From NCBI GenBank assembly GCA_019058315.1, contig JAHPZH010000003.1, positions 588,451 through 652,450 of the forward strand: 64,000 bases of DNA, given 5' to 3'. Position 1 is the first letter of the stretch. The number at the start of each line of letters is the position of its first letter. Under the pieces are notes generated by a model that was not told where the DNA came from, ran no database searches, and worked only from the letters and a program-made list of their open reading frames with translations. Source of the stretch: Candidatus Helarchaeota archaeon (GTDB taxonomy: Archaea; Asgardarchaeota; Lokiarchaeia; Helarchaeales; RDOG01). Below, in pieces: positions 13,234-44,262 of this stretch. The translations under genes were made by a program, and so were the position numbers.

Positions 13234-13238
13234 TCCTT

Positions 13239-25375: not shown

Positions 25376-25576
25376 TATATGTCACAATATAATTTTATCC
25401 ACTAAAGATTAAATTCTGATTATTAATGTCATTTGATCAAATCGATCCTCTCTTAATTCTTTTTAATTTTTTATATATTTTTATTTTACTAAATCGGTGA
25501 TTTTAAAAAAATTCGCTAATTTCTTCCTTCAAACACGCTTCCAGTTACCAACAAAACTCAATAATCAGTGTAATGT

Positions 25577-26074
25577 TCAAGCCCTTAACTTTTTATCTAC
25601 AATCCATTTTTCTATAATGAATGATTGTGATATCTCTTTTAAATGAGTAAAATTAGGAATTATGGTAGATTTAGGAAACCAGACTTTCGTTTTGGCATCT
25701 AATTCTAATAATAGACCTGCTTTAGTTTCAGCAATTATTTTTCCTTCAATTTTTGCAGTTTTTAAATTAAATACCTCTACAATCGTCTCAGGAATATCTG
25801 CTAATTGACCGCAGTATTTAACCATCCGTTCCTTTGCTTCGCTTAAAAATTCTCCAGATAAATTATTCCCCGAAAGTATCCATTTTGCACAATATGACAA
25901 GATACCAGCATCAGGTTTGTTAAAACCTACACCATTTCGATATCTACTTCGATTTATATATTTTTCATCATGTGTTTGGTTTTTATAAATGGCAACTATC
26001 GCCCATTCGAGAAAATTCTGATCGTTAAACAGTTTATATCTTAATTTTCTAATTATTTCATTTCTAGATCTCAT
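25577..26074 (-). CDS. Hypothetical protein with NGVGFNKPD motif
   Basis: AIVAIY..QT.DE..NGVGFN..D...KY..QL pattern recalled from phage proteins. Confidence 0.55.
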   Translation of the reverse strand: MRSRNEIIRKLRYKLFNDQNFLEWAIVAIYKNQTHDEKYINRSRYRNGVGFNKPDAGILSYCAKWILSGNNLSGEFLSEAKERMVKYCGQLADIPETIVEVFNLKTAKIEGKIIAETKAGLLLELDAKTKVWFPKSTIIPNFTHLKEISQSFIIEKWIVDKKLRA

Positions 26075-26079
26075 TTAAA

Positions 26080-26751
26080 TCACGAATTAGTAACAGTGGC
26101 AACCTTATAACATCCGATTAATAGAATTAAAGCCATAAAATAAGTAGAAATGAAATAAAACCAATTTATTTCATATACTGAATAAGCATTCCAAGAACCC
26201 GCAAACCATGCAGGAATAAAAGCAATAACAAGAGACATTAATTCAAATAGGGACCGCTTAGCATTAGTGTTAAATGGAACAAAAATAGTCTTTAGGTCTG
26301 GAGGGCTAGGCAATGCTGTAAATGTAAGGGTAAATATTAAATAATATTTTATTGCTTCATGTAAATTCGGTAAATAATAAAGTATTAATCCTACAAAAAG
26401 TCCATTTATGATGGCAGGACCTACTGAAATAAGAAAACTACTTAAAAAACTTTCCGGTTCTTCACAATCTACATATCCTGCTGCACCTGGTACTTCAGGG
26501 TCACCAAAAGTAAAAAATTTGACTTTTCTTACAGGTGTGCCAGTTATTATGCAAAAAATGAAATGACCAAACTCATGTAGGGCAATCCCTGGAATACAGA
26601 TTACTAAAAAGAATTTTCCAAGATAAGATACATATCTTTTAAAAGCTTCAATCTTTAATATTGAATTTATAACTATCGAGGCGAAAACTACTGCTATTAT
26701 TACCGTAACACCGAAAGGGATAAAATCAGATATGCTTTGGATTATTTCCAT
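26080..26751 (-). CDS. Membrane zinc metalloprotease (M50-like)
   Basis: PGIALHEFGH, GYV, SVGP, PSPPD. Confidence 0.8.
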   Translation of the reverse strand: MEIIQSISDFIPFGVTVIIAVVFASIVINSILKIEAFKRYVSYLGKFFLVICIPGIALHEFGHFIFCIITGTPVRKVKFFTFGDPEVPGAAGYVDCEEPESFLSSFLISVGPAIINGLFVGLILYYLPNLHEAIKYYLIFTLTFTALPSPPDLKTIFVPFNTNAKRSLFELMSLVIAFIPAWFAGSWNAYSVYEINWFYFISTYFMALILLIGCYKVATVTNS

Positions 26752-27093
26752 TTATATCATCTTATTTTTCTTGAATTTTAGTCGAGTATTTGATTTTACT
26801 TTTAAGTTTTTTGTTAATTAGAAATCAAATATTTTACTAGATATTTACAATATCTATGGTTTATAATAATGATATTATACAAATATCGTCCCAGATTATC
26901 TATTTATTAGAAAAATATCTTCTCATAAATTTAAATGGTTTATAATTTTAGTAATTTTATGCAGATAATGCATAACTCAAATTAAATTGAATTTTTGACA
27001 ACCAATAATTTTATAAAGAAAAGCTTGAGCTTGGCTTTTTTCAAAACGAGAATACAACAAAAATTATTCAAAAATTGATTCGGACCGAATAAT

Positions 27094-29577
27094 TTGAAAC
27101 GAATAATATCGCAAAGGAAAAACAAAAAACAATTATTTTTTATTGGAGTGATAGGATTAGTCATTATTCTATATTTTTGTTTCGATGCAATACGACCTAT
27201 TAATGGTCTAAATTTTGTTCCAAATACTGGAAAACATACCCAACTCCCCATATTTTCTTCTGCTATTAAGAATGTAACAGAAGCAAATCTATCAATTCTT
27301 TATCCTGTAAATATTGACCGATATTATACCGAACCTCTAAATGGTTTTGGGTCAGGAACTGTTGAAAATCTACAAAATGAAACAGGGATAGTCACTACCG
27401 CTGAGACTTATCCTAGTTCGGACTATGGAAACATATCTGTCGAAGTTTCTTTTAATACAACTGGTCTGGATATCAGCTCCATGACATTATTTCGTGTCAA
27501 TTGGGAAGGAAGTATCGCATCTACTGCAAGTTCAGTAGTGGATACAAAATTAAATGTATATATAGACAATCAAGGTGGCTGGGAAATGCTGCACAATGCA
27601 ACAAATACGGGTGGTAGTTTAATTGAACGTAAAATTGGATGGTGGGAGCATGCTATTCCATCAAATTTTCAAAATTATATTAGCGGAAATACTATTAAAC
27701 TAAAATTCGAGGCTGTCCAAAATTTAACAGCGACAGAAAATAATTGGTATTTTTATTTATTTCTTCATTGGTCAAATATTGTATTTGGAAAGGATATCGA
27801 ATTCACAAGATTAAATGCTACAGCCATCGAATTAATCTATAATGATACCAATTATGAACAAATTGGAAATATAACCAGTCTAGAAAATGATGAGGATAGT
27901 GATGTCCTATCTATAAAAATAAATGAGACATTGGTAGCTGGAAGGAACAATATTACCTTTGATGTCGTATTTGATTTACTTAATTATTCTTTGGATGACA
28001 TTTATGGTTTTACTTACTACCATGATGATTGGTTTTCATTCAATGGTGGGATTGAACCTCCACAATTGGGAACTATTAGTATTCAGAATACCTCCTCAGG
28101 TCAATTATTCCCAATTCAATATTTACGGGACTCCCATATTTCTTATACTAATTTATATCCAAAACAAGGCTTTGCAGCATACACATTTACAGACGCTGGG
28201 TGGTGGAATCCATCGGGATTACGGTTACGATATTACCGAAATATAACTGGGATTACTAATTGGGCTAAAATTGAAATCGATCTTGGATATATTGAACTTG
28301 CTAGAAGAACAAGTCCTATATTTTCCGTCTATGTAGAGAATAATACAAGGTATATTGATGAAATTGAACATATCCAAATTTTTGTTCAAAATTATAGGAG
28401 TAACGTGACTGATATTCAAGTTATTAGTTCGGAAGGAAATTCTTTTGTTAATGACTCAGAAGGAAATTACACATTTGAGATTACAAGGACAACATCAGGA
28501 TGGTATAACTTCTCAGTTCAAATTATAGATAATGAAGAGCATTTAGTCACTAAGGGTCTCTACAAAATTTGGTTTAATGGACGACCAGTTAATATCGACA
28601 TAACCTTATCTCCAATCCCTCAAGAAATTAACTGCCTACTTGTATTTACAGACAGTATTTATGGAGCTCCCGTAGCTAACAAAGCCTTTGATCTATGGAT
28701 TTATAGATATGGGGAGACTATCCCCTATGCTAGTTATCCCGGACTGACTACTAATGCTTCGGGGATGTTTTTTGATAGTTATAGTGTTCTTCCATACCTT
28801 GATCAAAGTTATACGTTTAATGTAACGACTTATGCAGATGCTAGCTATAGTCGTTGCTCGGTAACAAGTTCTATAACTTGTTCATATGCCCCCCCAAGGT
28901 TTACAATAACAGATGTCGTTTATAATTCTCAATATTCTGGAGAAACGGTTACTATACATTACACTTTGGAAGACTGGACCGTAAATATTGTAAGTGCTAA
29001 TCTCAAGGAAAATGGAAATTTCATAACAAGCATCCCTATCTCTCCCGGATTAAATCAAGTTTCTTTCACTACAATAAGCGGTAATAATAATTACACACTA
29101 TGGGCCGTAAATTCTAGAGGACAAGTGGGTGAATCCGAGATTGTGAATCTAAATTTATTTCTAAAACCGATAAAATTGGATATATTAACTTTTTACTTGG
29201 ACGATTTCTTCTATTTCTTTATAGACGTGAAGGATAATGAAACGGGTTCAAGTCTTGATGGTGTTCCGGTCCGAGTTTCAGTGTATGATAGCGGATTTCT
29301 ATTATTTTCAGGTCAAGTTGAAACTCATTCTATAATCGTTGGGGGCTTTCCCTTTGATGGGGGATTAGACCACCATTTCTTGTTCAGGGCTGAAGTCGTA
29401 GAAGATAATTTCGAAAATCGTCAAAAAGAATCACAATTACCATTTCAAGCATATCCTATATTGGAATTATTGACCTTTGGATTAATAACTCCAGCGATTG
29501 TAGGAGTAATTATATTTCCCCGATTAATAAGTAAAAGACGGAGATTTAGGCATAACGGACGTTATCGCCAAAGTTAA
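27094..29577 (+). CDS. Large surface glycoprotein with beta-sandwich/Ig-like domains
   Basis: N-terminal signal/TM, many NxS/T sequons, C-terminal TM and basic tail. Confidence 0.75.
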   Translation: MKRIISQRKNKKQLFFIGVIGLVIILYFCFDAIRPINGLNFVPNTGKHTQLPIFSSAIKNVTEANLSILYPVNIDRYYTEPLNGFGSGTVENLQNETGIVTTAETYPSSDYGNISVEVSFNTTGLDISSMTLFRVNWEGSIASTASSVVDTKLNVYIDNQGGWEMLHNATNTGGSLIERKIGWWEHAIPSNFQNYISGNTIKLKFEAVQNLTATENNWYFYLFLHWSNIVFGKDIEFTRLNATAIELIYNDTNYEQIGNITSLENDEDSDVLSIKINETLVAGRNNITFDVVFDLLNYSLDDIYGFTYYHDDWFSFNGGIEPPQLGTISIQNTSSGQLFPIQYLRDSHISYTNLYPKQGFAAYTFTDAGWWNPSGLRLRYYRNITGITNWAKIEIDLGYIELARRTSPIFSVYVENNTRYIDEIEHIQIFVQNYRSNVTDIQVISSEGNSFVNDSEGNYTFEITRTTSGWYNFSVQIIDNEEHLVTKGLYKIWFNGRPVNIDITLSPIPQEINCLLVFTDSIYGAPVANKAFDLWIYRYGETIPYASYPGLTTNASGMFFDSYSVLPYLDQSYTFNVTTYADASYSRCSVTSSITCSYAPPRFTITDVVYNSQYSGETVTIHYTLEDWTVNIVSANLKENGNFITSIPISPGLNQVSFTTISGNNNYTLWAVNSRGQVGESEIVNLNLFLKPIKLDILTFYLDDFFYFFIDVKDNETGSSLDGVPVRVSVYDSGFLLFSGQVETHSIIVGGFPFDGGLDHHFLFRAEVVEDNFENRQKESQLPFQAYPILELLTFGLITPAIVGVIIFPRLISKRRRFRHNGRYRQS

Positions 29578-29597
29578 ATTTATGGAGTATTTATAAA

Positions 29598-29861
29598 ATG
29601 AATATAATTTTTGCACTAATTGAAATAGTCCGGACAATAACATTCTTTTTCACATGTGGTGTGGCAATGATATTTTGTTATAATATTTTAAGCTATATTT
29701 TTGGGCTTGATTCTCCTGGAAAATCCATGAAGGCGTTGGGCATCAGTTTTCTGTTAATTATATTATTATTAACTCTAGATAACACGGTCTATTCGATTTA
29801 TCATGTGCATATTATAAATACGAAAATAGCTTTGGGGGCGACTCCAGATCCGATATTTTGA
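29598..29861 (+). CDS. Small two-TM pilin-like protein
   Basis: TM-GxSxKAL-TM-LD..VHI; paralog of the next gene. Confidence 0.65.
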   Translation: MNIIFALIEIVRTITFFFTCGVAMIFCYNILSYIFGLDSPGKSMKALGISFLLIILLLTLDNTVYSIYHVHIINTKIALGATPDPIF

Positions 29862-29870
29862 GGTGTCAAT

Positions 29871-30110
29871 ATGATCTTTACTGTAATATTAGGAATTGTA
29901 CAAAATTTAGTTTTTATAGCTATAATGATTGATATAATATTGATAATCTGGAATTTGTTAGGATGGCAACTAGGAATTTATGGTTCTGGAGGGTCGAAAA
30001 GAGCCTTAATGATTACCATAGGCATTCTTATAGGAATTTTCTACCTAGATGCTATATTGTTCGATATTTTCAAAGTTCATATTGTCTCATTCCCAGTTTT
30101 TATAATTTAA
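29871..30110 (+). CDS. Small two-TM pilin-like protein
   Basis: TM-GGSKRAL-TM-LD..VHI; GAGGTG RBS. Confidence 0.65.
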   Translation: MIFTVILGIVQNLVFIAIMIDIILIIWNLLGWQLGIYGSGGSKRALMITIGILIGIFYLDAILFDIFKVHIVSFPVFII

Positions 30111-30128
30111 TTTTATGGAGAGAAGATA

Positions 30129-33100
30129 ATGGCAAGTCATAGTATAGCAGAAGATGTTGAAGCACAAGATATGATAAAAGAAGTAAAGCCGAATATGACT
30201 AGAATTGAAAAATTAAATGCTTTTGCAAAGGAATTAATAATTCGTAAAGGTTACATCCCTCTAAATAGCGAATATTTTACGTCCCTACGCCACACAAAAT
30301 TATATTATCGACCTATTTATTTCTATCCCGCACCAGGAGAAAAAATCTGTGTTATTGATATATTGCTCCCCCATGGTACTTTAAAGGATAAAAGCCAACT
30401 TATTACTCAATTAGAATTGCTCAATAAAGAATGTAAGGAAATCCGTTCGATTTTATTGCAAGAATATCAGAATTGCCCAAAAGTATTTAATGATCAACAA
30501 TTCGGTTATGACGAATTTGGATTTATTCCTAAGAGATCTAAATTAGTTCCCTTATATGGTGAGTCATTACAAGTAGTATTTTCGGTAAAACCCATCATTT
30601 TAACAATTAAAGGCAAACCAGAATATGATATTCAGAGAGATTCGAGAGTAGATATTGTTCCAATTGAAAAAATTCAATGGTATTTAAATCAGTGGAGAAA
30701 TGAGGTAGTTGAACTAGCTAAAAAGGCATATAATATTAAGAAATTTAAACACTTTGAAGCACAAGACACTTTTGAAAAGTGGACATTGTTATTCTTGATG
30801 TTATATATGATACCCGTTGAATTAAACAACTTTCTCCAGTGGAATCTATGGTTTCTATCATTTTATTTCTTTCTTGCTGTTGCACTTTCAGTGGGTATTT
30901 CTAATTTTCCTCATAATTATCTTAGATATAAAAAATTCTCTAAATTATGCCGGGAAGAAATAATATCCTCTAAATGGGTAGATCAAAGCAGTTTTTTGAA
31001 ACCATTCCTCACTCGTTCAAAACAGCTATTGGTCCAACCCCTGGAAAATAAGCAAGGTGTAAATCAAAAGGTATATTCACAAAATAGAGATGAGATTAAA
31101 CCACTATTCTCAAAATCTCCTACCACAAATTCGATGAATACTATAGGAACAACAGTTAAGACATCAAGACCGGTAGAGAGCAGGGGGGAGATTAGAGAAG
31201 ATACCAATACTAAAGTTGTCCCGGAGGAATTAGTGCCAGACACTCCTTTAATAAAACCTTCTGGACCAAGAGGCATTAAAACCTTATTACTGAGGAAGTC
31301 GAAATCTAATGTCAATATTGAAATTTACAAGGAACAACTTGGTGATCTTTATTCTAAATTAAAAACAACTACAGACTTTGAAGTTTTTAGAATTACAGCA
31401 TTGAGAATTATCACCTTAATTCTTACTTGCGAATGGTTTAAGCGGACTGGCACTCCTCCTGTAAATATCAGGATTAGAGAGGTCTCAAATGATAGGATTG
31501 ACCACTTTCGACAAGCCGAAAACTTACTAACTCAATTTCTAGAACGGCTCCCTGATGCTATTAATATTGATGAGGTGTACCGCTTTGCTACTATAATAAA
31601 TATGGGTCAGATGAATCAAAAAATGATAGATCATGTTGAATGGAAGATAGAGGATTGGCTTTTAGATTATAAGCTTTTACCAGCTAATAAAATGAAAGTT
31701 TTACAAGCTAACCATTCTAAAATAACATCAGCTCCCGAAAGGATTGTGAGAAATTACACTGATAAGGTGGATTCAACTTTATCTAAGTTTAAAACTATAG
31801 ATTTGGAACGAAAAATGTCCCCTAAGCAGGAGGATAAGCCGGAGATTCCCGAAAAACCAAAGATTACCAATAAACCAAATACAGAGAAACTTCCAGAAAG
31901 GCGAATTGAAAGGAGACCTTTTACCTCACCAACCAGAAAAGAACAGTCAAATATTGTGGAAGAAGAAAAAAGCCTTGATACTATTATAAATGAAGCAAAA
32001 GGACACAGACCCCTCTTGACTATTGGAGAAGAGGTATTGGATTATTATAGGTTTAATTATATAACAAAAGATGTAGGTTACAACTCATATGGAACACCTG
32101 TATGCGTATTAGCTTATGATTCAAGGATCCACACAGATAAACCACTTCAAGAATTCAAGGAAATCGCAAAACAAATGTCCAATTTTGCATCCTATGTCTA
32201 TTTTGATTATGCTAACGTAAAACAAGAGATTTCTACAAACACAGAATTTGAACCATTATTAGAACCTAGACTCTGGATTAGGGACAAAAGCTTGGGTATT
32301 GATAAAAATTTCAAATTTTCTCCCTCAGCCATGGCAAATTTTCTTTCGGGAGTTCGAAGGAAATTGCGAAATAAAGATGCTCCAGACCCTTCTTTTGATG
32401 AAAGTGTAAATGGTGAGGTTCATGAATTTGAACAAGTGGAAGAGGATGATCAATTATCTCCCGAGGATTTGGAACATATTAATATTGATGCAGATCTCCC
32501 CGAAAGCGTAAAACAAGCTGCTAGAGTCTATGAGACTGAAGAACACACCGAACCTGTTGATGCTGTAATGCAGGAATTAGAAGAATTTGAAAAAGACGCT
32601 AGATTAGATAATTCTTTAATAGACCAAGAAATAGTCGTCCGTCACGAGACCCCATTTTTACAAAAAGAACTTTTCAAAACTGCAAAAAATAAAGGAAATG
32701 GAATTATTATAGACTCAAATAACTTTCTACATTCATTTTTACCAGAAATAAATATAATTAAGAAGGATTATGGATATATTCCCGATTATTATTTAATGCA
32801 TGTCTTTGATTTCTTATATAGAAAATTGGATGAATGGGGTTTTGGCCCTATAATCTTCTATACCGACCCTGATTTCTACATATATTTATTACCAGAACCC
32901 CAAAAAAGCAGAAAAATTGCTCATTTTAAAACAAAAGAAAAGTATCTATATTATCAAGCTTCAACAGAAGAGTCAAATTATTTCGAACATCAGCGCAAAT
33001 TGGGTCTTTTTAGGCAAGTTGAAAAAGGTGGGGATACAGACATGGAGATTTTGGTTGAAGGTTCCACTCATGATTATAAAATTTTAACTAACGACCAATT

Positions 33101-34133
33101 TAACCAGTCCAGATACGACCAATTTTGGGAATATGTCGCAAGTAACAGGCTTACATTCAAAATTGACAAATCTGCAATGACCATTTATGATTCAAAAAAT
33201 AATCAAATGGGAGAGCCATTATTTCTTATCAAACTTCCCGGAGATATTAAGGAAAAAGTATCTTCAATAGTTAAGACTAAGGCAGACATTCATCCACAGA
33301 TAAGAAGATTGACATCAGAAAATGCGAAAGAAATAACAAACGGTCTTGCAAAGGGGTATAGAGCTAATATTCTTGAAAAGCTCTCTATACACCCGATGAA
33401 CACATTGGAATTACAAAAATCCATTAATGGAAAAAATGAAGTAATCTCAATAGCAATTAAGGCATTAGCTGATGAAAATAAAATTGTCAGAATCGGATCA
33501 AAGTGGACAATAAACACATCAACCAGTTTACCACATCATGAGATAAGTAATTTTGAGACTTCAGTAATCGAAATCGTTTTTGGAGCATTTCATGCAAAAA
33601 TTGGACCGATTATTTTGTTTCCAACATGTAGCGAATGTTTAGACAAGTTCAATAAGGATAAGAACACAATTGATAGTATTTCCGAATTTGATTTACGACA
33701 CCATTTGAAATTGACTAATTGTAAATGCCCATTACCTAAAACAGGAATCCCTCGAGATGTAGTTAGAACACAACATTTAAACATCACGCTAAATTCTAAA
33801 GGGTTCCAAACTAGTGAGGGAGAGCATACCTTTCTATCATATAGATGGAGTAAAAAGGTAACCGACTCAGCAAGACAAGAATTAAGCTGGGCTATCTTGA
33901 TATATGTAAATCCAAAAAATCCAGTTTATAATATTGAAAGGGAGTTAATTAGAGATTTCTTATGGAGTTATGATTTTAACATAGATGAGGGCATAAGAAG
34001 TTTAGTCGAGCAAGGATTTAAGGGGGCAGAACTTGACGAGAAATTTTATGATCTAATGTACGAATATTTGATGAATTTCATTGATGATCTTACAAAAAGA
34101 ATTCATCACACATTAAATGAGTTAAAGGAGTGA
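30129..34133 (+). CDS. Multidomain membrane protein: two TMs, NYN/Regnase-like PIN RNase, wHTH, C-terminal longin/uDENN-like domain
   Basis: IIIDSNN...DTDMEIL...ILTNDQF; IVFGAFHAKIGPIILF...DSAR...AILIYV. Confidence 0.65.
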   Translation: MASHSIAEDVEAQDMIKEVKPNMTRIEKLNAFAKELIIRKGYIPLNSEYFTSLRHTKLYYRPIYFYPAPGEKICVIDILLPHGTLKDKSQLITQLELLNKECKEIRSILLQEYQNCPKVFNDQQFGYDEFGFIPKRSKLVPLYGESLQVVFSVKPIILTIKGKPEYDIQRDSRVDIVPIEKIQWYLNQWRNEVVELAKKAYNIKKFKHFEAQDTFEKWTLLFLMLYMIPVELNNFLQWNLWFLSFYFFLAVALSVGISNFPHNYLRYKKFSKLCREEIISSKWVDQSSFLKPFLTRSKQLLVQPLENKQGVNQKVYSQNRDEIKPLFSKSPTTNSMNTIGTTVKTSRPVESRGEIREDTNTKVVPEELVPDTPLIKPSGPRGIKTLLLRKSKSNVNIEIYKEQLGDLYSKLKTTTDFEVFRITALRIITLILTCEWFKRTGTPPVNIRIREVSNDRIDHFRQAENLLTQFLERLPDAINIDEVYRFATIINMGQMNQKMIDHVEWKIEDWLLDYKLLPANKMKVLQANHSKITSAPERIVRNYTDKVDSTLSKFKTIDLERKMSPKQEDKPEIPEKPKITNKPNTEKLPERRIERRPFTSPTRKEQSNIVEEEKSLDTIINEAKGHRPLLTIGEEVLDYYRFNYITKDVGYNSYGTPVCVLAYDSRIHTDKPLQEFKEIAKQMSNFASYVYFDYANVKQEISTNTEFEPLLEPRLWIRDKSLGIDKNFKFSPSAMANFLSGVRRKLRNKDAPDPSFDESVNGEVHEFEQVEEDDQLSPEDLEHINIDADLPESVKQAARVYETEEHTEPVDAVMQELEEFEKDARLDNSLIDQEIVVRHETPFLQKELFKTAKNKGNGIIIDSNNFLHSFLPEINIIKKDYGYIPDYYLMHVFDFLYRKLDEWGFGPIIFYTDPDFYIYLLPEPQKSRKIAHFKTKEKYLYYQASTEESNYFEHQRKLGLFRQVEKGGDTDMEILVEGSTHDYKILTNDQFNQSRYDQFWEYVASNRLTFKIDKSAMTIYDSKNNQMGEPLFLIKLPGDIKEKVSSIVKTKADIHPQIRRLTSENAKEITNGLAKGYRANILEKLSIHPMNTLELQKSINGKNEVISIAIKALADENKIVRIGSKWTINTSTSLPHHEISNFETSVIEIVFGAFHAKIGPIILFPTCSECLDKFNKDKNTIDSISEFDLRHHLKLTNCKCPLPKTGIPRDVVRTQHLNITLNSKGFQTSEGEHTFLSYRWSKKVTDSARQELSWAILIYVNPKNPVYNIERELIRDFLWSYDFNIDEGIRSLVEQGFKGAELDEKFYDLMYEYLMNFIDDLTKRIHHTLNELKE

Positions 34134-34139
34134 GTTAAT

Positions 34140-35204
34140 ATGAGCACAAATACGGACTATAAGTTGATTATATGTGGAATCTCAGGAGTTGGCAAGACCA
34201 GCATAGAACGCCATTTCTTTCATGGGAGAACCTATAATGAAATTGAAAATATGAATTTGGGACCTACTAAAGATGTTTTTTATTTTACTGAAAAACCCTT
34301 CAAACTCGGTTCTATGACAATACGTGCAGTTGATACAGGAGGCCAAAAATTGCTCCGTAAAAAACTTCATGGAGAAATGGAAGATTTATGCTGGATTGGG
34401 ACAGATGCATGTATTTACGTTATAGATATGGCTAGTGACATTATCAAATACGAAGAAATGTTACTTGAAAATGAAACATTGCCAGATAATTTTATTTGGA
34501 AACGGTTGGATGAGGCAAAAGAAGAACTAAAAAAAGTCCTTAATTCGTTAGTTAAATTCACTGTCCCTACTTCTAAGGTTAGGTTGATCATCCTACTTCA
34601 TAAATGGGATATATTGAAAGATTTTCCAAGAGATGTACAAGAAGAATGGCGACAGTGGTTACAAGACGAATTGGCGAAAATTGAAGATGAATGCCAATTT
34701 AACATACTTAATGGGAATAATGGTAGTAAAATTGAATTCTTAGGCTTTCACACCACTTCAATAATGGATAATAGTTGTAAGGCTGCTATTCGTAAAATTT
34801 TACCCCCACAAGAACAGTTGAAAAGGATACTAAGAGGATTTGTCGATAATTGTAAGGACCTTAAAGCAGACCAGGTCTACATAGCAGCTTTAAACGAGGA
34901 CGGTCTGGAAATTGAAAGCATACAATTTCCATCTATGATGGATACAGAACATTATTATGAAAATATCATAAGGTATTGTGTCCCTACTCTAAATCTACAG
35001 GAAAAATTTAAGTCAAATAGCATCATATCACTCTGTTTATTGAAAGAACCAGACCTACTATTGGCAGTTCAGCCCATATCAAAGGAAATTTCTGTTGTTG
35101 TTGTCACCGACATAACAGATTTAAATAAACTCAGAATTGTCATGGAGAGACTTAATGAAACACTTCGACATGTAAATAACATCATCAATATTTATTTTCA
35201 ATAG
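34140..35204 (+). CDS. Rag/Gtr-like small GTPase with C-terminal roadblock-like domain
   Basis: GISGVGKTS, LGPT, DTGGQ, LHKWD (His-type G4 as in Rags), TSIMD. Confidence 0.82.
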   Translation: MSTNTDYKLIICGISGVGKTSIERHFFHGRTYNEIENMNLGPTKDVFYFTEKPFKLGSMTIRAVDTGGQKLLRKKLHGEMEDLCWIGTDACIYVIDMASDIIKYEEMLLENETLPDNFIWKRLDEAKEELKKVLNSLVKFTVPTSKVRLIILLHKWDILKDFPRDVQEEWRQWLQDELAKIEDECQFNILNGNNGSKIEFLGFHTTSIMDNSCKAAIRKILPPQEQLKRILRGFVDNCKDLKADQVYIAALNEDGLEIESIQFPSMMDTEHYYENIIRYCVPTLNLQEKFKSNSIISLCLLKEPDLLLAVQPISKEISVVVVTDITDLNKLRIVMERLNETLRHVNNIINIYFQ

Positions 35205-35236
35205 AGGATGAAGGTTATATTACTGGGGATAATTAA

Positions 35237-37210
35237 ATGACTAGTGTTTTTTCTAAATTACCTTTTGAAGTGGAAAAATTCTTCCCCTTTGAAAAACTAA
35301 GACCTGGACAATCAATGTTGGCTAAAGAAATTTATTATAGTGTCCTTTCTAGAAAAAATGTGGTCATTGAAGCATCAAATGGTCTGGGCAAGACAATTAC
35401 TTCATTAATAGCCCTCCTTCCGATAGTGGAAAAGGAAAATAAAACTTTAATCTACTGCACTAGAACACATAGCCAAATGGAAAGGGTGCTGGAAGAACTT
35501 AATCGCATTCGTCAAGTAAAAAAATGGAAAATTACGGGAGTAAGTTTACAAGGCAGAACCGAAATGTGCATTAATCCCCAAATTCAATTAGCAGCTTTAA
35601 ATACCGCTGATGCCATGAATCTTTGTTCCACACTTCGTAAAAATAAGAATTGTCCTTGGTTTGAAAATTTGAAAAATAGCTCTGTATTGATCAATAAATT
35701 ACGGGGGTTTCCAATTTCCGCAGCACAAATGATCAATATTGGGAGAAAATTTAATATATGCCCATATTTTCTAGCACGGACTTTAATAAAACAGGCTCAT
35801 ATAGTTGTAACAACCTATTTATATATAATACATCCTGCAATACGCCAAATTTTCCTAAACGATATTGAAGTTCCCCTTTCTGAATGTATACTATTATTCG
35901 ATGAAAGCCATAATTTGCATGATCTAGTAATGCAGATGGCATCGGATTATGTTTCAAAGATCTCCTTGGAAAGAGCTTTAAGCGAATTTCATAATTACAT
36001 GTTCAGTAACGATACTGTTGAAGAATTTTTAACAAGATTCCATCGTTTACTTGAAGATAAAGGTTCATTCTATAAAGGTAATTATGGAGAAGAAGAATTT
36101 CCCGTTGGTAAAAGGGAGATTAAGGAAATTCTTAATCAATATAGTGATAATCATTTGGAACTAGCTGAATTAATAATCCAATTCGGAAAATCAGTTCGCA
36201 ATAAAAGAATGAAAGCGGGACATCCCTCAAGATCTTCCCTCTACAAATTCGGTCAGTTTCTTATCACGTTAATACAGACTATTGATGATAAAAAGTTTCT
36301 ACATGAATATGCTTACTCAGGATCTAAAAAGAAGTTAAAAATAAAATATTATATAAAATGTTTGGATGCAAGACCATTATTAAATGAATTAGCAGAAGCA
36401 AGGGCAATAGTTTGTCTTTCAGGGACACTGGAACCTATTGATGCCTATTTAGATCTATGTGGTTTTTCTAGATTTACTACTACTTCAAAAGTTCTTCCTT
36501 CACCCTTTCCAGCAAATCATCTTTTAATAATAACTGTTCAAAGTGTTGATACAAAGTATTATAACAGGACTCCAAGCAATTATAAGATGTTCAAAGAACG
36601 CTGCATAGAGGTTGTGAAAAATACCCCTAATAACACGGGTATTTTTTGTGCTTCCTACGGAGTCTTAGAGGGAGTGTTAAATGCCGGTCTATATGATGAC
36701 GTTGAGACTCTAGGGAAAGAATTATTCATTGAACAAGCGGATTTAACGAGTAAGGATAATGAGTTAATGATCCAAAATTATAAAGAAATTGGACGAAATG
36801 GAGGCAGTGCAGTGTTAGCTGGTGTGTGTGGAGGTCGAAATTCCGAAGGTGTCGACTTTCCAGGACCAGAGATGAATTCGGTTGTTATAGTGGGACTTCC
36901 ACTCGCTAAACCTACATATACATTGGAAGCATTGCAGAAATATTATCAGGAACAATTTGGAGGGGATAAAGGAAGAGAATATGGTTATTACTTGCCAGCA
37001 TTAAGAAAGTCAAACCAAGCGGCTGGTAGACCCGTTAGGAGGTTGATAGATAAGGGTGCAATTGTTTTTTTGGATGAGCGATATGCATTTCCCTATTACA
37101 AACGTTATTTATCTTGTTGGATTCGAGATTCTATGATTACAATCTTGAACCAAAAAGGAATTCTAGAAGAAGAAATAAAGAATTTTTATCAGAATAGAAA
37201 TTACTTGTAA
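35237..37210 (+). CDS. xpd: XPD/Rad3-family Fe-S DNA helicase
   Basis: RPGQ, SNGLGKT, RTHSQ, four Fe-S Cys ending ICPYF, DESHN, SGTL, SEGVDF, QAAGR. Confidence 0.93.
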   Translation: MTSVFSKLPFEVEKFFPFEKLRPGQSMLAKEIYYSVLSRKNVVIEASNGLGKTITSLIALLPIVEKENKTLIYCTRTHSQMERVLEELNRIRQVKKWKITGVSLQGRTEMCINPQIQLAALNTADAMNLCSTLRKNKNCPWFENLKNSSVLINKLRGFPISAAQMINIGRKFNICPYFLARTLIKQAHIVVTTYLYIIHPAIRQIFLNDIEVPLSECILLFDESHNLHDLVMQMASDYVSKISLERALSEFHNYMFSNDTVEEFLTRFHRLLEDKGSFYKGNYGEEEFPVGKREIKEILNQYSDNHLELAELIIQFGKSVRNKRMKAGHPSRSSLYKFGQFLITLIQTIDDKKFLHEYAYSGSKKKLKIKYYIKCLDARPLLNELAEARAIVCLSGTLEPIDAYLDLCGFSRFTTTSKVLPSPFPANHLLIITVQSVDTKYYNRTPSNYKMFKERCIEVVKNTPNNTGIFCASYGVLEGVLNAGLYDDVETLGKELFIEQADLTSKDNELMIQNYKEIGRNGGSAVLAGVCGGRNSEGVDFPGPEMNSVVIVGLPLAKPTYTLEALQKYYQEQFGGDKGREYGYYLPALRKSNQAAGRPVRRLIDKGAIVFLDERYAFPYYKRYLSCWIRDSMITILNQKGILEEEIKNFYQNRNYL

Positions 37211-37372: not shown

Positions 37373-38542
37373 CTACTCTTTTAAAGCTCTTAAGATTAGA
37401 TCGGTAATGTCAATTACGTTCAGTGATGTATCTGTCTTTTTGGCAGCATCTTTTAAATTTTTCAAGCAAAAAGGACAGTTTGTTGTAAGAATATCAGCAT
37501 TAATCTCTTTAGCTTCTTGAATTCTATCGACTCCAATTTCTAATGCTAATTCGGGAAAACCACTTTTAACACCTCCACCTGCACCACAGCACCAAGTATT
37601 TTCCCTATTTCTTTTCATTTCGATGAGTTTTAACTTAGGAATATTTAGGAGTATATTTCTAGGAGCATCATAAATTCTAGAAGAATGACTAAGATGGCAA
37701 GGATCATGATATGTGACAATTTCATTAGTCTCATTTTCAAATTTTAATTTTCCATCTTTTAATAATTGTTCAATGAATTCTGTAATGTGTAAAATTTTAA
37801 ATGGTAATTCACCAAGTATATCAAAATAGTCATTTTTTATCGTTTTATAGCATCCAGCGCAATGTGTAATTACAATTTTAGCTCCTGCATTTTTTATAGC
37901 TTCCACATTCTGACCTGCCAGTTCTCTCGCTAAAGTTTTTTTGCCAATCCTTAGAGCAATACTTCCACAACATTTTTCATCCTCACCAAGAATTCCGAAT
38001 TCAACATTGGCTTTCTCTAATATTTTAATCACATTATCTATGATACTAGGCATTCTATAACTTCCTGTACATCCAATGAAGAAAATAATTTCGGCATTAT
38101 TTGGAATTTTTTTATCCTTTAACCAATTTATGCGTTCTATATGTTTTTCCATATACGGATTAAATTCTTTTTGACACCAATCCAATATTTCTTTATGCCT
38201 TGGTAAGATATATCCATTTTCTAACAGATCTTCTCGAAATACCTCCCATAATTTTATATGATCTAACCAATAAGAATTTGGTAAATTTATGCAAGGATCA
38301 TAACTGTTATGACAAATTTCTTTACAAGAACCACATGTAGTGCATTTGAAGAAGTTTTCTGCAATTTCTTTACTAAGCTCTAATCTACCTTCAAGTAAAC
38401 CTTCTAATACTCTAAATCTACCTCTCGCATGTGTTGGTTCAAAACCAGCAGTATGTTCATAGATTGGGCAGACACCATATCGTCCTACACTTGGACGGTA
38501 CCCAATTCTGCAGTCTCCAATACCTGAACATGAATATATCAT
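37373..38542 (-). CDS. Fe-S oxidoreductase (GlcF/HdrD-like, CCG domains)
   Basis: CTTCGSC...C, CCGS, YHDPCHL, CCGAGGG, CPFC. Confidence 0.9.
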   Translation of the reverse strand: MIYSCSGIGDCRIGYRPSVGRYGVCPIYEHTAGFEPTHARGRFRVLEGLLEGRLELSKEIAENFFKCTTCGSCKEICHNSYDPCINLPNSYWLDHIKLWEVFREDLLENGYILPRHKEILDWCQKEFNPYMEKHIERINWLKDKKIPNNAEIIFFIGCTGSYRMPSIIDNVIKILEKANVEFGILGEDEKCCGSIALRIGKKTLARELAGQNVEAIKNAGAKIVITHCAGCYKTIKNDYFDILGELPFKILHITEFIEQLLKDGKLKFENETNEIVTYHDPCHLSHSSRIYDAPRNILLNIPKLKLIEMKRNRENTWCCGAGGGVKSGFPELALEIGVDRIQEAKEINADILTTNCPFCLKNLKDAAKKTDTSLNVIDITDLILRALKE

Positions 38543-38587
38543 TTTCTCATATTTTCTTAGATTAATTAATTTATCATTTGGAATTTT

Positions 38588-40093
38588 TTATTCACCATCC
38601 ATCCCTAATTTGTATTTACCAGGAGAAAGAATCCCTTTTGGATCTAAAGTTTGTTTAATATTCTTTAAAAATTCATAAAATTGTTCTGAAAAAGCACCTG
38701 CATTTATTAAAGCTCTTGAATATCTTAAACCTGTCATATATGGCATAAAACCATTTTTTATCAATGCCTCCGAGCAGGAATCCCACAACTCTCCATTTAA
38801 TTTCCTAAATTCAGGTTTATTCCAAACTACTAAACCCATTACAGCATCTATCATTGTGTGTTCAGACAATCCAAAGAAAGTTCCTATTGCTGGAATGGCT
38901 TTTGCGGCATTTATTTTAAGGTCATTATCTTTTACCCAATTAGACATTTCCTTTAAGAGAATCGGATATTGATGCATAGACACATACCCATCTGCAGATT
39001 GACCAACGCTTCCTGGTCCTAATGCACCCCATCCCATATGCGCAAATTGCCAATATCCATTTTTTTCATGTACCCAATTATAAAATTCATTAAAATCAAG
39101 TTCTTCAATTCCATTTTCATTTTTGGTTATTTGGGTAACAATCTTGATGTTTTCTTCTAACTGTGCTTCAGTATCGGCTATAATTGAGTATGAAATAATA
39201 GGTCGTTTCCGTGGATTAATTTCATTTAATTTTTCATAAATCGGTGGTAATTGAGGAAGAATTTTAGTCGATTGAGCAATTACCCAGGAAGAATCAAAAA
39301 ATATCGCTTGATATATTCCTAAATTACTCTTTTTACGACAATTTAAAAATATTTTAAGAGTTTTTTCTACAGGTCTTTTTTTAACAGTAAATGAATGACT
39401 AACTAAATAATTGGGTTTTTTATAAATATTCAATGATGCTTCAGTTTTGATTCCCATTATTCCATTATCGCCTAAAAAAATACCTAACAAATCGGGTCCG
39501 AAACCATGTCTACTGAACGGTTTGGTAATATACTTACTCGCTCCTGAGCCTATTTCTATAATGTCTCCTTTTTTATTTGGTAAAACAACTTTCAATCCCA
39601 CACAATTTTTTGTTACTGGACCATACATTGTACTGCCTTCACCATAACTATTATTACTTAATCCTCCACCAATAACGGCAGACATTCCGCTTTCAGGACC
39701 AATATTTCCTGTATAAAAGCCTCTTTTCATCAAAGAAGTATTCAATTGAGCCCATGTTATTCCACACTGCGCTCTAACGGTCATTATTTCTTCATTTATT
39801 TCTAAAATCTTATCCATTCTCGTTGTATCAATTACAATTCCTCCTGGATTATATGGAACGATACCCTGTAGAAGATCTGCACCTCCTCCTCGCGGAATTA
39901 TTGGAATTCTCTCATTGTATGCAATCTTGACAATTTCAGAGATCTCCTCTGAGCTTTCTGGGCGTACAACAAAATCGGGTCGATTTTCTTCCACTACAGC
40001 ATCTACACCTCTTGAATAACTTTCTCTAATGTATTCTGCATCAGTGACAAATTCAGCTCCAACAATATTTCTTAATGAGCCAAGGATATTCAT
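38588..40093 (-). CDS. FAD-linked oxidase (GlcD/D-lactate dehydrogenase family)
   Basis: PDFVVRP, PRGGG, IGGGLSNN, DPKGILSPGK. Confidence 0.9.
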   Translation of the reverse strand: MNILGSLRNIVGAEFVTDAEYIRESYSRGVDAVVEENRPDFVVRPESSEEISEIVKIAYNERIPIIPRGGGADLLQGIVPYNPGGIVIDTTRMDKILEINEEIMTVRAQCGITWAQLNTSLMKRGFYTGNIGPESGMSAVIGGGLSNNSYGEGSTMYGPVTKNCVGLKVVLPNKKGDIIEIGSGASKYITKPFSRHGFGPDLLGIFLGDNGIMGIKTEASLNIYKKPNYLVSHSFTVKKRPVEKTLKIFLNCRKKSNLGIYQAIFFDSSWVIAQSTKILPQLPPIYEKLNEINPRKRPIISYSIIADTEAQLEENIKIVTQITKNENGIEELDFNEFYNWVHEKNGYWQFAHMGWGALGPGSVGQSADGYVSMHQYPILLKEMSNWVKDNDLKINAAKAIPAIGTFFGLSEHTMIDAVMGLVVWNKPEFRKLNGELWDSCSEALIKNGFMPYMTGLRYSRALINAGAFSEQFYEFLKNIKQTLDPKGILSPGKYKLGMDGE

Positions 40094-40482: not shown

Positions 40483-42243
40483 ATGTCACAAATAAATAAT
40501 TCAAAATCCTCATTAAGCATACCAAATACGAAAACCATTCATTTTCTTAAAGCTGCCAATTCCTATGTTTTAAATGAAAATTTTAAAAAAGGCCAGACAA
40601 CCACACTTCCCACAAAGATAGCAAACTACTTCCTAGCAAATAAAATTGCGGAAGAAGTCATTGAAAAAAAAGTAAGAACTGACTATGAAAGAATCAAAGA
40701 TAAATTGGAAGATAAAGAAGAAGAAAATAACGAAAAACCAAGATATGTCCGACATCCTCTAATTATTGAAAACACAATTGAAGCAAGACTATACCAAGAG
40801 GTCAGTTTTGCTGAAACAGTCAAGAAAAATTCCCTTGTAATTTTACCTACAGGACTAGGCAAGACAATAATTGCCGTCTTAAGTTCAGTTTATTGGCTAT
40901 CTCAAGATAAAACCAATAAAGTAATCATGTTTGCACCCACTAGACCGTTATTGGACCAGCATTTTGAAAATTTTTCTAAGTGGCTTAATTTGATGGATAA
41001 TGAAATTGTCCAGATCACAGGAAAAACATACAAAAAAAAGCGAGCTAAAATGTTTGAGAATGCCAGAATGATATTTATGACCCCCCAAATTACCCTTGAC
41101 GATTTCGATTTAAAAGATGTGGCTTTAATGATTTTTGACGAGTGTCATCGAGCTGTAAGGAGATATAGATATGTCAGTAACGCTGAAAAATATTTTATCG
41201 AGGCAACCAATCCCCATATTCTCGGATTGACTGCAACACCTGGCACACCAAAGAAGATTCTAAGTGTCATGCGAAACCTAAAAATAAATAAAGTTAGTCT
41301 GGCCAATGAGGAAACAGACACTGTAAAACCATACACTCATCAAATATACGAGGATTATGTAAGAATTACACTCCCTCCAGAATTAATGAAACTTCGTAAC
41401 TTCATTAACAATTCGCTAAAACGGAAATTGTCTATTTTAAGCCATCATCCACTTGTCAAAAAATATGTGGAAGATAAATACAGAATCAATCCCCACGATC
41501 TTTCACGGATTGTAAAGATGCATATGGGAACCATGGTTTCAGTTAAACCTATTTTGATGCAGGTACTTAGTCTTACCTATTTATTGAATCTTGTCGAAGC
41601 TCAATCCATAAGAGCTTTGGAAAATAAGTTGATCGATCTGCAAGGGTCTAGAAATCCAATTTATCAAGAGATAAATTCCATATTGACTGACTTAAGAAGA
41701 AAAAATATAGAACATCCTAAACCTAAAATAGCATCAAATATTGTCCAAAATTACTGCAAAAACCATGAAGATTCAAGAGTTCTAGTCTTTGTTCAATATC
41801 TGGATAGTGTTGATATTGTCTTGGAGGAATTACAGGAAAAAGGACTAAAAGTAAATAAATTAGTCGGACAAAAGACCATGAGTCAGGATTTACAAAGAGA
41901 AATATTGGAAAAATTTAGAAATGGAGAGTTCCAAGTGCTAGTAGCAACCTCGGTAGCAGAAGAAGGATTGGATATAGCACAATGTGACCTAGTGGTTTTT
42001 TATGATTGTATACCCTCAGGTATTCGAACAGTTCAAAGGCGAGGTAGGACCGGGAGACGTCGTGCTGGGATGTTAATTTATCTTTATACAGAAGGTACTT
42101 GGGAGGAAAGTTTTATTTATATATCAAGAAAGCGGATTAAAGAGACAAATCATATTTTAAAGCTCATGGAACGACAGGACGATCCGCTAGATTTTTTAAG
42201 GGAGTATTTACATTCAAAAAATAAGAAAATGAATTCGTATTAA
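40483..42243 (+). CDS. hef: Hef/FANCM-like DEAH helicase with N-terminal GINS B-like domain and no ERCC4 nuclease
   Basis: ARLYQ, LPTGLGKT, DECHRA, GLTATPG, HPK, ATSVAEEGLDI, QRRGRTGR. Confidence 0.88.
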   Translation: MSQINNSKSSLSIPNTKTIHFLKAANSYVLNENFKKGQTTTLPTKIANYFLANKIAEEVIEKKVRTDYERIKDKLEDKEEENNEKPRYVRHPLIIENTIEARLYQEVSFAETVKKNSLVILPTGLGKTIIAVLSSVYWLSQDKTNKVIMFAPTRPLLDQHFENFSKWLNLMDNEIVQITGKTYKKKRAKMFENARMIFMTPQITLDDFDLKDVALMIFDECHRAVRRYRYVSNAEKYFIEATNPHILGLTATPGTPKKILSVMRNLKINKVSLANEETDTVKPYTHQIYEDYVRITLPPELMKLRNFINNSLKRKLSILSHHPLVKKYVEDKYRINPHDLSRIVKMHMGTMVSVKPILMQVLSLTYLLNLVEAQSIRALENKLIDLQGSRNPIYQEINSILTDLRRKNIEHPKPKIASNIVQNYCKNHEDSRVLVFVQYLDSVDIVLEELQEKGLKVNKLVGQKTMSQDLQREILEKFRNGEFQVLVATSVAEEGLDIAQCDLVVFYDCIPSGIRTVQRRGRTGRRRAGMLIYLYTEGTWEESFIYISRKRIKETNHILKLMERQDDPLDFLREYLHSKNKKMNSY

Positions 42244-42357
42244 TTTACGTTGATAATATAGTTATCAGTATTTGCTACATAACAAAATTTCAAATTTCGA
42301 TGGTGAAAATTAAAGTAGAAATCATGAAAGACAAATTTTAAATCTTATATCTTTCAG

Positions 42358-42894
42358 ATGGTTTTACTAAAGGGTGATTGTAGAATGAAGGATTTAAAAC
42401 CAGAACGAAAAATTCAAGTTTATACGGGTGTAGTAGCTCTATTTGGTGGAATTTTTTTTACTATTGTAGGATTGGACTATCGAATATCTCCATGGAATAT
42501 ATTTCATACATACATAACAGAACCTCCTTGGCTATTATTGGGGTTAATTTATTTGTATTTTGGGTGTGTTGAAATAATTCAGTACCAATATATAAAATCT
42601 CACTATCTGCAATATCCTAGTAATGATCTATGTGATCTATGCGGTGAACATGTAGAAAAGATAAATATAAGAGGGTATTCAGGGTTCAGACTTATATTAT
42701 GCAAAAAATGTCATAAGAAAGTCTTAACGATTAATGGAATAGGTTTAGAGATCTTATTTCTTATGTTAATTCTATTACTCTTTTTTATATACCCCAGACT
42801 TGCTGATTCGTATAAAATAATTGGATTTTATATGTTTCTTGGCATTGCAGTCGGGATTCCTCCAATCATTATTTTTCTAATTCGAAGATATTAA
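42358..42894 (+). CDS. Membrane protein with internal Zn finger
   Basis: Four TMs; CDLC..CKKC. Confidence 0.65.
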   Translation: MVLLKGDCRMKDLKPERKIQVYTGVVALFGGIFFTIVGLDYRISPWNIFHTYITEPPWLLLGLIYLYFGCVEIIQYQYIKSHYLQYPSNDLCDLCGEHVEKINIRGYSGFRLILCKKCHKKVLTINGIGLEILFLMLILLLFFIYPRLADSYKIIGFYMFLGIAVGIPPIIIFLIRRY

Positions 42895-43189
42895 GCTTTT
42901 AAATTTTTATTTTATCGAAAAATCATAAATGCTTAAAAATCTATAACATTGTTTTAATTCAAATTAATAGTTAAAGACATTTAATTTGATTTTATTTTTT
43001 ATTACTTCTTTATTCCTATATTGTTTATAAGAATACCAAATTTATAAATTTATCTTATATTAATTAATCCCTCCTGTCTATATGGCAAGTTACTAGCTCT
43101 ACACCCAGTTTTGAATTTTTTACAAGAATAATATTTATAAAGGATTCATCATGCTTGGCTATTTTAAAATTTTTTTAGGAGTAAAAACC

Positions 43190-44233: not shown

Positions 44234-44262
44234 ATAATTTTTTAAAAATAAATGGTGGAGAA

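Follow-up and report, generated by a model that had tools for sequence, protein, structure and literature searches.

A modelled longin domain of the FLCN/NPRL2 structural class, encoded beside a Rag-type GTPase in a Helarchaeota-like archaeal family

A stretch of 64,000 nucleotides (nt) of DNA from a Candidatus Helarchaeota archaeon (assembly GCA_019058315.1, contig JAHPZH010000003.1, positions 588,451 to 652,450 of the forward strand; hereafter the window) encodes a 1334-amino-acid (aa) protein whose C-terminal domain is, by its structural model, a longin of the FLCN/NPRL2/SMCR8 class, followed immediately by a GTPase of Rag architecture. The two genes are tightly coupled and co-inherited, adjoining one another in all nine loci that we examined. 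We tentatively read their products as a cognate pair in which Arg1249 of the longin would serve as an arginine finger, a proposal in which our confidence falls somewhat short of an even balance. Folliculin (FLCN) and GATOR1, both tumour suppressors, act as off-switches of the Rag GTPases during nutrient sensing in eukaryotes. A sequence-only reading of the window had already singled out the two genes, and the motifs it quoted, the arginine codon at 33873-33875 and the 6-nt gap between the TGA of the 1334-aa gene and the start of the GTPase gene are all reproduced by translation.

The longin domain and the protein that carries it

The last 195 residues of the 1334-aa protein were modelled with AlphaFold2 (AF2) from an alignment with seven relatives recovered by an exhaustive HMMER search, giving a predicted local distance difference test (pLDDT) score of 88.3 and a predicted template-modelling score of 0.86. 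In the model the chain runs through two strands, a partly disordered insert, a helix, three further strands and then helices, which is the topology of a longin. When the model was compared by VIA-align with all 48,161 representative chains of the PDB, only eight reached a Z score of at least 7.5: a Lokiarchaeal longin (10.3), FLCN (10.1), FNIP2 (9.2), two chains of C9orf72-SMCR8 (9.1 and 7.5), NPRL2 (9.0), a chain of the SEA complex (8.9) and Lst4 (8.7). Each of these chains belongs to the class, to a partner subunit of its members or to an Asgard longin, whereas generic longins (VAMP7, Mon1-Ccz1, Sec22, sigma-adaptins and sedlin) scored no higher than 7.2 in the same comparison. Alignment of candidates preselected with Foldseek gave a similar range (FLCN 9.6-10.1, NPRL2 8.4-9.3, SEA-complex chains 8.9-9.3, Lst4 8.9, the Lokiarchaeal longin 10.3, generic longins at most 7), with a root-mean-square deviation (rmsd) from FLCN of 3.7-3.8 over 141-156 residues. 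The top PDB rows of the Foldseek search itself were SEA-complex and GATOR1 chains, with marginal E-values, and a shape search of the ESM Atlas returned NPR2-family clusters at template-modelling (TM) scores of 0.53-0.56 together with Asgard clusters, one of them partly annotated as PF11704 (Folliculin). By its modelled fold, the domain belongs with the longins of the FLCN/NPRL2/SMCR8 class, in line with the FLCN/NPRL2-like longin named in the sequence-only reading.

That reading had also placed a candidate arginine finger in a loop of the longin, and the model puts Arg1249 in the beta4-beta5 loop, two residues before beta5 (DSSP assigns strands to model residues 96-104 and 112-121, with R110 corresponding to R1249). 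Translation of 33864-33890 gives DSARQELSW; the motif spanning beta1 and beta2 begins at residue 1149 (nt 33573), FLSYRW at 1235, DSAR occupies 1246-1249 and WAILIYV begins at 1254. The arginine fingers of FLCN (R164) and NPRL2 (R78) lie in this same loop, and their equivalence with R1249 is topological. R1249 is invariant in eight of eight relatives, comprising seven close ones and an ortholog from G304, a genome of another genus in the same family whose longin is only 20% identical. The other positions invariant in all eight are G1152, F1154, G1159, P1165, W1240 and N1268. Of these, Gly1159 opens strand beta2 (model strand 20-25) at the position of the so-called GP motif. The G304 ortholog reads GEFDPISGPEI at beta1-beta2 and ALPRGEA at the arginine loop; its start, of the form GEF-D-P-x-x-GP, resembles the beta1-beta2 motif of NPRL2. 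The two segments together come near the published pattern of a GP motif at the beta1-beta2 turn of GAP-type longins (GAP, GTPase-activating protein) followed by an arginine finger, as defined in PMC12290439.

Between beta2 and helix 1 lies a Cys-x2-Cys ... Cys-x-Cys insert that is probably a zinc knuckle. Its four cysteines are invariant in the seven close relatives, the whole insert is missing from the G304 ortholog, and its middle is poorly modelled (pLDDT below 50 at model residues 41-46). FLCN likewise carries a cysteine-rich insert after beta2. In a profile search of PDB sequences, the second cysteine pair and the following helix gave a weak match to the UBZ zinc finger of RAD18 (E 0.024).

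The longin is the tail of a much larger protein, composed in order of an N-terminal domain (residues ~1-215, conserved), a hydrophobic hairpin, a helical domain (~381-521), a further globular domain (~627-745), an acidic linker, an NYN-like domain, a short winged-helix-like segment and the longin itself, with limits taken from an alignment of five orthologs. Orthologs are 1152-1368 aa long. Scans of the whole protein against Pfam and NCBIfam gave no family, only a sub-threshold match to DUF6001; a word-based search with residues 1-560 returned one partial Helarchaeota protein, and an Atlas feature search with the N-terminal 215 residues returned only unnamed clusters (0.87-0.88). Since the predicted hairpin would leave its two ends on one side of the membrane, the protein as a whole is probably a cytoplasmic one, held at the membrane by this hairpin. 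The motifs of the NYN-like domain are kept in the four orthologs that possess it, and ortholog P0013 lacks the domain; an Atlas feature search matched this region to a Zc3h12a-like NYN cluster (PF11977; 0.89, with 184 of 256 features in common), a lead only, and the domain goes undetected in a Pfam scan. The winged-helix-like segment cannot be aligned in ortholog P0012 and is fragmentary in P0014. Two apparently short architectures, P0017 (369 aa) and P0015 (478 aa), were set aside as probable fragments, since their contigs show in-frame stops within sequence that aligns to the large gene. In the two metagenomic relatives concerned (L063:1-210 and L064:3-316), a single in-frame stop in a conserved part of the large gene makes the gene caller report these short proteins; such a stop could mean that the gene is split, that it has become a pseudogene or that the assembly is wrong there.

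A Rag-type GTPase coupled to the longin gene

The neighbouring 354-aa protein carries the P-loop GISGVGKT (residues 13-20), DTGGQ (65-69), HKWD (154-157) and TTSIMD (205-210); H154, K155, D157, S207 and D210 are invariant in its seven relatives. HKxD in place of NKxD at G4, and TSI at G5, are marks of the Rag/Gtr family. Residues 8-239 match Pfam PF04670 (Gtr1_RagA) at 54.3 bits against a cut-off of 22, although this model also finds matches in E. coli and M. jannaschii controls, so that passing the cut-off is by itself of limited specificity; for the G304 ortholog the score is 45.6 bits. The best matches among PDB sequences are Gtr1 and RagA (E 5e-6 to 2e-3). In the AF2 model, residues 223-353 follow the roadblock-like order helix-strand-strand-helix-strand-strand-strand-helix, and residues 221-353 superpose on MglB with a Z of 14.6 (rmsd 2.5 over 123 residues). 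Over its full length the chain aligns best to LokiRagM (Z 17.0 over 272 residues, rmsd 5.7, 15% identity), followed by RagA and Gtr1 (Z 15.3). These results confirm a GTPase of Rag architecture with a roadblock tail, in agreement with the sequence-only reading.

In the nine loci its gene lies at most 18 nt from that of the longin-bearing protein. The gap is 6 nt in the window, 0 in L002, 18 in L003, 13 in L004, 17 in L063, 9 in L064 and 13 in L065; in G304 the stop of the large gene overlaps the start of the GTPase gene, and in L001 a cut copy of the large gene abuts the GTPase gene. In the window, translational coupling of the two genes is to be expected from the short gap and from the Shine-Dalgarno-like AAGGAG inside the 3' end of the 1334-aa gene. 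The linkage persists while the GTPases diverge to 34% identity (G304) and the longins to 20%.

Both families are small and are found together. Each is single-copy in the genome that carries the window (5.8 Mb in 12 contigs, with an estimated completeness of 94%; the window lies on the contig labelled C11). When the C-terminal 260 residues of the 1334-aa protein were searched exhaustively with HMMER against 1.8 billion representatives, seven real relatives and one repetitive false positive came up, and the GTPase family has six relatives in 5.8 billion proteins. The longin profile found no real match in 300 other Asgard genomes, two of them of the same order, the sole hit being a cysteine-rich zinc-ribbon protein that we judged spurious; the GTPase found no match in five other genomes of the order. 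The longin family is thus confined to one Helarchaeota-like family. Across the genome, a strong PF04670 match is found no more than 2 kb away for 1.7% of the open reading frames (ORFs) of at least 200 aa, as against 5 of 17 folliculin-type longin ORFs, a count reached in none of 20,000 random draws, with the limit that the loci are not independent of one another.

Weighing the longin-Rag pair against its alternatives

We consider the locus to encode a lineage-specific set of this Helarchaeota-like family, consisting of a membrane-tethered scaffold with NYN-like, winged-helix-like and longin parts and a Rag GTPase that would be cognate to it. In the mechanism that we tentatively favour, the longin would dock on the GTP-bound G domain, and Arg1249 would enter the nucleotide pocket from the beta4-beta5 loop, with Gly1159 beside it at the start of beta2. 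Its insertion would speed GTP hydrolysis, as FLCN does on RagC/D and NPRL2 on RagA/B. The nucleotide state of the GTPase would then set whether it stays on the scaffold, and hence how active the scaffold's other domains are or where they are placed. A single prediction job, run without controls, for a complex of the longin with the GTPase, GTP and Mg scored 0.22 and 0.15 against a mark of 0.32 and counts neither way.

Several observations weigh against this proposal. The kinship to the FLCN/NPRL2 class rests on fold and motif and not on sequence statistics. Neither PF11704 (Folliculin) nor PF06218 (NPR2) matches the 1334-aa protein or its G304 ortholog P0023 up to an E-value of 1, PF06218 finds nothing anywhere in the genome, and a Pfam scan of the C-terminal 165 residues of the G304 ortholog returned nothing relevant. 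A hidden Markov model built from Pfam-recognised Asgard folliculin-type longins misses the 1334-aa protein in a search of the genome, and when the longin family (G304 ortholog included) is compared by hhalign with 14 such longins the probability is a non-significant 1-4%, with the arginine loops paired one residue out of register. A profile search of PDB sequences with the longin family brought up neither FLCN nor NPRL2, and the longin drew no usable match in an Atlas feature search. With the family confined to one lineage and profile similarity to Pfam-recognised Asgard longins not significant, the ancestry implied by the sequence-only reading, a "proto-GATOR1/FLCN", is not borne out.

The structural evidence also has its weak points for the proposal. 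Catalytic subunits (FLCN, NPRL2 and SMCR8) and non-catalytic ones (FNIP2/Lst4 and C9orf72) score about equally against the longin, and the proline of the GP motif occurs in only three of the eight relatives (the window protein, P0013 and the G304 ortholog). Eukaryotic longin GAPs are longin-longin heterodimers with DENN-like domains following the longin. The 1334-aa protein, by comparison, has only helices in the roughly 70 residues that follow beta5 and no DENN-like domain, and no second longin gene was found in the block by Pfam or profile. The AF2 model of the GTPase is of moderate quality (pLDDT 69.7), with the switch regions below 50. Finally, adjacency within one family could partly reflect shared descent, and it is the whole six-gene block described below that is syntenic and not the pair alone.

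The main rival, which we consider unlikely while taking it seriously, is that the longin is a platform or anchor. It would pair with the roadblock tail of the GTPase, side by side in the manner of Rag-Ragulator, Rag heterodimers and MglB dimers, and so tether a partnerless Rag-like GTPase to the scaffold, with the arginine playing a structural or interface role. Rag GTPases are heterodimers of two paralogs joined through their roadblock domains, and the PF04670 search found no second Rag-like gene in the block or in the window that could supply a dimer partner. Among solved structures, the GTPase is matched best over its full length by an Asgard Rag-like protein that is monomeric and the longin by a Lokiarchaeal one that is dimeric, and the non-catalytic FNIP2 and Lst4 match the longin as well as catalytic subunits do. 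It is the 1334-aa protein that has a membrane hairpin, and the GTPase that has none. On the other side, a dimer interface would not usually call for an arginine that stays invariant down to 20% identity, sits where the arginine fingers lie and has the invariant glycine of the GP position next to it. The anchoring and GAP roles could also coexist.

It is more improbable still, in our estimate, that there is no direct partnership at all, the block having simply been inherited together in a narrow lineage while the longin regulates another small GTPase. The genome certainly allows many and varied pairings: it holds 54 PF04670 matches (about 24 of them strong, the window GTPase being among the more divergent) and 16 other folliculin-type longins detectable by profile, 8 of them fused to Ras/Rab-like G domains, and all relatives of the pair fall in one family-level lineage. 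Against this stand the separation of at most 18 nt kept in nine loci despite the divergence of both partners, and the fact that both families are single-copy, restricted to the same lineage and always found together.

The pairing is not a general property of the class. Among 20 loci with Pfam-recognised folliculin-type longins in other Asgard genomes, only one has an HKxD GTPase within 7 kb, at a distance of 2.5 kb, a result that tells against the proposed pair as well as showing that longin-Rag adjacency is not the rule. The Pfam-recognisable longins that we examined stand alone, are fused to Ras/Rab- or Arf-like G domains, or have no adjoining GTPase. The eight fusions in the window's own genome are paralogous proteins of ~340 aa, each with an N-terminal folliculin-type longin (GP motif and ARGG loop) before the G domain, and four of them form one array on contig C1; fusion sites include C1:30628-35004, C3:542573-544696, C11:29023-30069 and C1:452966-454012. 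Another gene of this genome (C3:347969-348901; L010:4967-5902) encodes a 311-aa protein that begins with a folliculin-type longin (DSARGG loop) and ends in membrane helices. Two strong Rag-like GTPase genes are found near it, at distances of 2 kb and 5 kb, and genes for a methyltransferase, a TrmB-type regulator and a TPR protein are interspersed. Elsewhere, a 473-aa ORF in L061 (G159:C197) joins a folliculin-type longin with an Arf-like G domain (GLGKAGKT, DLGGQ, NKYD), and PF11704-positive ORFs of 471-495 aa in G019, G117, G135, G186 and G040 are close to it in size. In genus g44, the gene for a ~320-aa Arf-like GTPase keeps a constant distance of ~5.5 kb from the longin gene.

What the longin-Rag pair might control is a separate matter. 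We give little credence, though some, to the idea that it switches a membrane-tethered nucleic-acid-processing apparatus made up of the surface protein, the small membrane proteins, the NYN/winged-helix scaffold and XPD, set in the midst of recombination genes, in place of any nutrient signalling; such an apparatus could serve to take up, export or survey nucleic acid at the cell envelope. If this were true, the Rag-longin GAP pair would predate its lysosomal nutrient-sensing role and be separable from it.

A role of the longin as a GEF (guanine nucleotide exchange factor) for the GTPase, as in DENN proteins, Mon1-Ccz1 and TRAPP, seems to us highly improbable. Longins are commoner in GEFs than in GAPs (PMC12290439; PMC3747258), and Mon1-Ccz1 and DENND1 do appear among the weaker fold matches (Z 5.4-7.2), but GEF-type longins fall 2-3 Z units below those of the GAP complexes, and the conserved arginine loop and glycine are what distinguish GAP longins (PMC12290439).

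Least probable of all is that the pair gates XPD or the surrounding repair genes by nutrient state, as the sequence-only reading had suggested: XPD does follow the GTPase gene at 32 nt, in the same order in L001, L002, L003 and G304, the window is crowded with repair genes and the scaffold has its NYN-like domain and winged-helix-like segment, but our analysis lent the idea no support, given that sister families keep the neighbouring repair genes without the Rag/longin module, so that the module looks like a later insertion into an older repair operon, that nothing in the locus senses nutrients, with no transporter, TOR-like kinase or amino-acid-binding domain present, and that NYN domains are usually RNases.

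Gene block, repair setting and relation to known systems

The longin-bearing gene and the GTPase gene belong to a block of six genes (27094-37210), all on the forward strand and with no intergenic gap larger than 32 nt, that is probably co-transcribed (Table 1). Gaps upstream of the 1334-aa gene within the block are 9-20 nt, including 9 nt between the two small genes and 18 nt from the second of these to the 1334-aa gene. The public sequencing runs that contain the sequence are sediment and mangrove metagenomes, with no RNA run among the runs listed. The window is AT-rich (27-35% G+C). The first gene encodes a predicted surface protein, with orthologs of 827 and 803 aa in the same position in L003 and G304; the small-protein pair also recurs in L003, and surface protein and small proteins are both kept in L003 and G304. 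A Pfam scan assigned no family to the surface protein, neither Pfam nor PADLOC gave one for the two small proteins, and PADLOC found no defence family for the surface protein, the 1334-aa protein or the GTPase.

Table 1. Positions within the window of the features discussed in the text.
Feature	Position	Strand	Remarks
FEN1	8999-9976		
Ski2-type helicase	14625-16859		No finer family match
RadB-like protein	19410-20123		
RadA	21191-22363		
Predicted surface protein, 827 aa	27094-29577	+	First gene of the block; hydrophobic anchors at N- and C-terminus; many N-x-S/T sites
Small hydrophobic membrane protein, 87 aa	29598-29861	+	Two predicted helices
Small hydrophobic membrane protein, 79 aa	29871-30110	+	Two predicted helices
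Multidomain protein, 1334 aa (P0001)	30129-34133	+	ORF translation
Hydrophobic hairpin (residues ~218-260)	30780-30908	+	Two predicted membrane helices, read from sequence; conserved among orthologs
NYN-like (Zc3h12a/PIN-type) nuclease domain core	32700-33101	+	Motifs IDSNN, YTDPDF, DTD, TNDQF
Winged-helix-like segment, between NYN-like domain and longin	33369-33521	+	Sequence pattern only
C-terminal longin (residues 1140-1334)	33546-34130	+	AF2 model
Gly1159-Pro1160, GP-motif position	33603-33608	+	Start of strand beta2 in the model
Cys-x2-Cys ... Cys-x-Cys insert	33621-33731	+	Presumed zinc-binding knuckle
Arg1249 codon, candidate arginine finger	33873-33875	+	Beta4-beta5 loop of the model
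Rag/Gtr-family GTPase, 354 aa (P0002)	34140-35204	+	G domain ~1-220, roadblock domain ~221-354
XPD/Rad3-family helicase	35237-37210	+	Last gene of the block, 32 nt after the GTPase gene
DEAD/Helicase_C helicase	40483-42243		
Second RadA	43151-44233		
DHH protein (RecJ-type)	44263-45744		
SSB	45759-46472		

The block closes with an XPD/Rad3-family helicase (TIGR00604 rad3, 333 bits against a cut-off of 247; PF06733 DEAD_2, 128.7 bits; PF06777 HBB, 48 bits; PF13307 Helicase_C_2, 121.2 bits), which also matches the type IV DinG model of PADLOC, as expected for the superfamily, and whose only other relative in the genome is 26% identical. Repair and recombination genes are unusually dense on both sides of the block, at 8999-22363 and 40483-46472. 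Two sister families of the same order (L069 and L070) have RadA, a ~255-aa gene and XPD in succession, with one extra gene in G301 and neither a scaffold nor a Rag gene, and their ~255-aa proteins show weak, co-linear similarity to the product of a 253-aa gene that follows RadA in the window. In the window, about 12 kb of extra sequence (23128-35236) separates RadA and the 253-aa gene from XPD and holds a PCI-domain protein, small genes, the surface protein, the scaffold and the GTPase. Since the sister families keep RadA, the ~255-aa gene and XPD without it, the module looks inserted into an older repair operon, and on the simplest reading the block from surface protein to GTPase was inserted between the 253-aa gene and XPD in the ancestor of the family. 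The link to XPD is therefore real as gene order, and kept in G304, but it is lineage-specific and need not be functional.

Two further neighbours deserve mention. At 23330-24154 lies the gene for the PCI-domain protein (274 aa, E 8.5e-9), a domain typical of subunits of the proteasome lid, COP9 and eIF3. On the reverse strand at 37373-40093, between XPD and the DEAD/Helicase_C helicase, lie two genes, one for an FAD-linked oxidase and one for an Fe-S/CCG protein (Pfam FAD_binding_4, CCG and Fer4_8); in L001 and L003 the DEAD/Helicase_C helicase comes directly after XPD.

Comparison with known systems brings out what is shared and what is peculiar here. With FLCN (yeast Lst7; PDB 6NZD, 6ULG and 8DHB), the GAP subunit of FLCN-FNIP for RagC/D (Gtr2), the window protein has in common the longin fold, an arginine in the beta4-beta5 loop, a glycine at the start of beta2 and a candidate partner of Rag architecture. 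Unlike FLCN, it has no PF11704 match, no DENN domain and no FNIP-like partner gene in the block, the proline of the GP motif is mostly lost in its family, and its longin forms the C-terminal end of a 1334-aa chain that is tethered to the membrane and also carries an NYN-like domain. The fold is likewise shared with NPRL2 (yeast Npr2; PDB 7T3B, 8FW5, 9V0J and 8ADL), the GAP of GATOR1/SEACIT for RagA/B (Gtr1), and the best sequence matches of the window GTPase are to Gtr1/RagA and not to Gtr2/RagC. The absence of PF06218 from the genome sets the locus apart from NPRL2, as does the block itself, where no NPRL3- or DEPDC5-like gene was seen. A prokaryotic precedent exists in MglA-MglB of Myxococcus and Thermus, where a GAP of the roadblock/longin superfamily acts on a neighbouring small GTPase. 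MglB works as a roadblock homodimer and is not known to use an arginine finger; here, in contrast, a longin bearing a conserved arginine is the candidate GAP, and it is the GTPase itself that includes the roadblock domain.

Among Asgard archaea, LokiRagM (PDB 8ZLA/9M28) and LokiRagO (8YL2) combine G and roadblock domains as the window GTPase does, and Asgard Rag-like GTPases have been modelled previously (Tran et al. 2024; PMC10933270). Unlike LokiRagM, the window GTPase belongs to a small family always coupled to the gene of a longin-bearing scaffold. RagA-like GTPases, NPRL2-like longins and FLCN-like proteins of Asgard archaea were catalogued by Liu et al. (bioRxiv 10.1101/2020.10.19.343400), who found most such genes outside conserved neighbourhoods. 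Asgard longins of the folliculin/SMCR8 type or resembling NPRL2, with a GP motif and an arginine finger, have since been described (PMC12290439; Traffic 2025), in a study that leaves open whether ArfR or Rag/Gtr GTPases are their partners. The window longin shares with these the phylum, the fold class and the logic of the arginine loop. Unlike those detectable by profile, it is missed by Pfam and profile searches, carries a zinc-knuckle-like insert, stands at the end of a scaffold and is coupled in an operon to a Rag GTPase.

What is new here is thus a longin family too divergent for existing profiles, placed at the tail of a membrane-tethered scaffold with NYN-like and winged-helix-like parts, bearing a zinc-knuckle-like insert and strictly coupled in an operon with a Rag GTPase and XPD. 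The locus offers a concrete candidate answer to the question of which GTPase the arginine-finger longins of Asgard archaea act on, and it does so in a setting unlike any eukaryotic one, in which the scaffold has a membrane hairpin and an NYN-like nuclease domain and the operon includes XPD. If the pair is functional, the Rag-longin module would have served other outputs in archaea.

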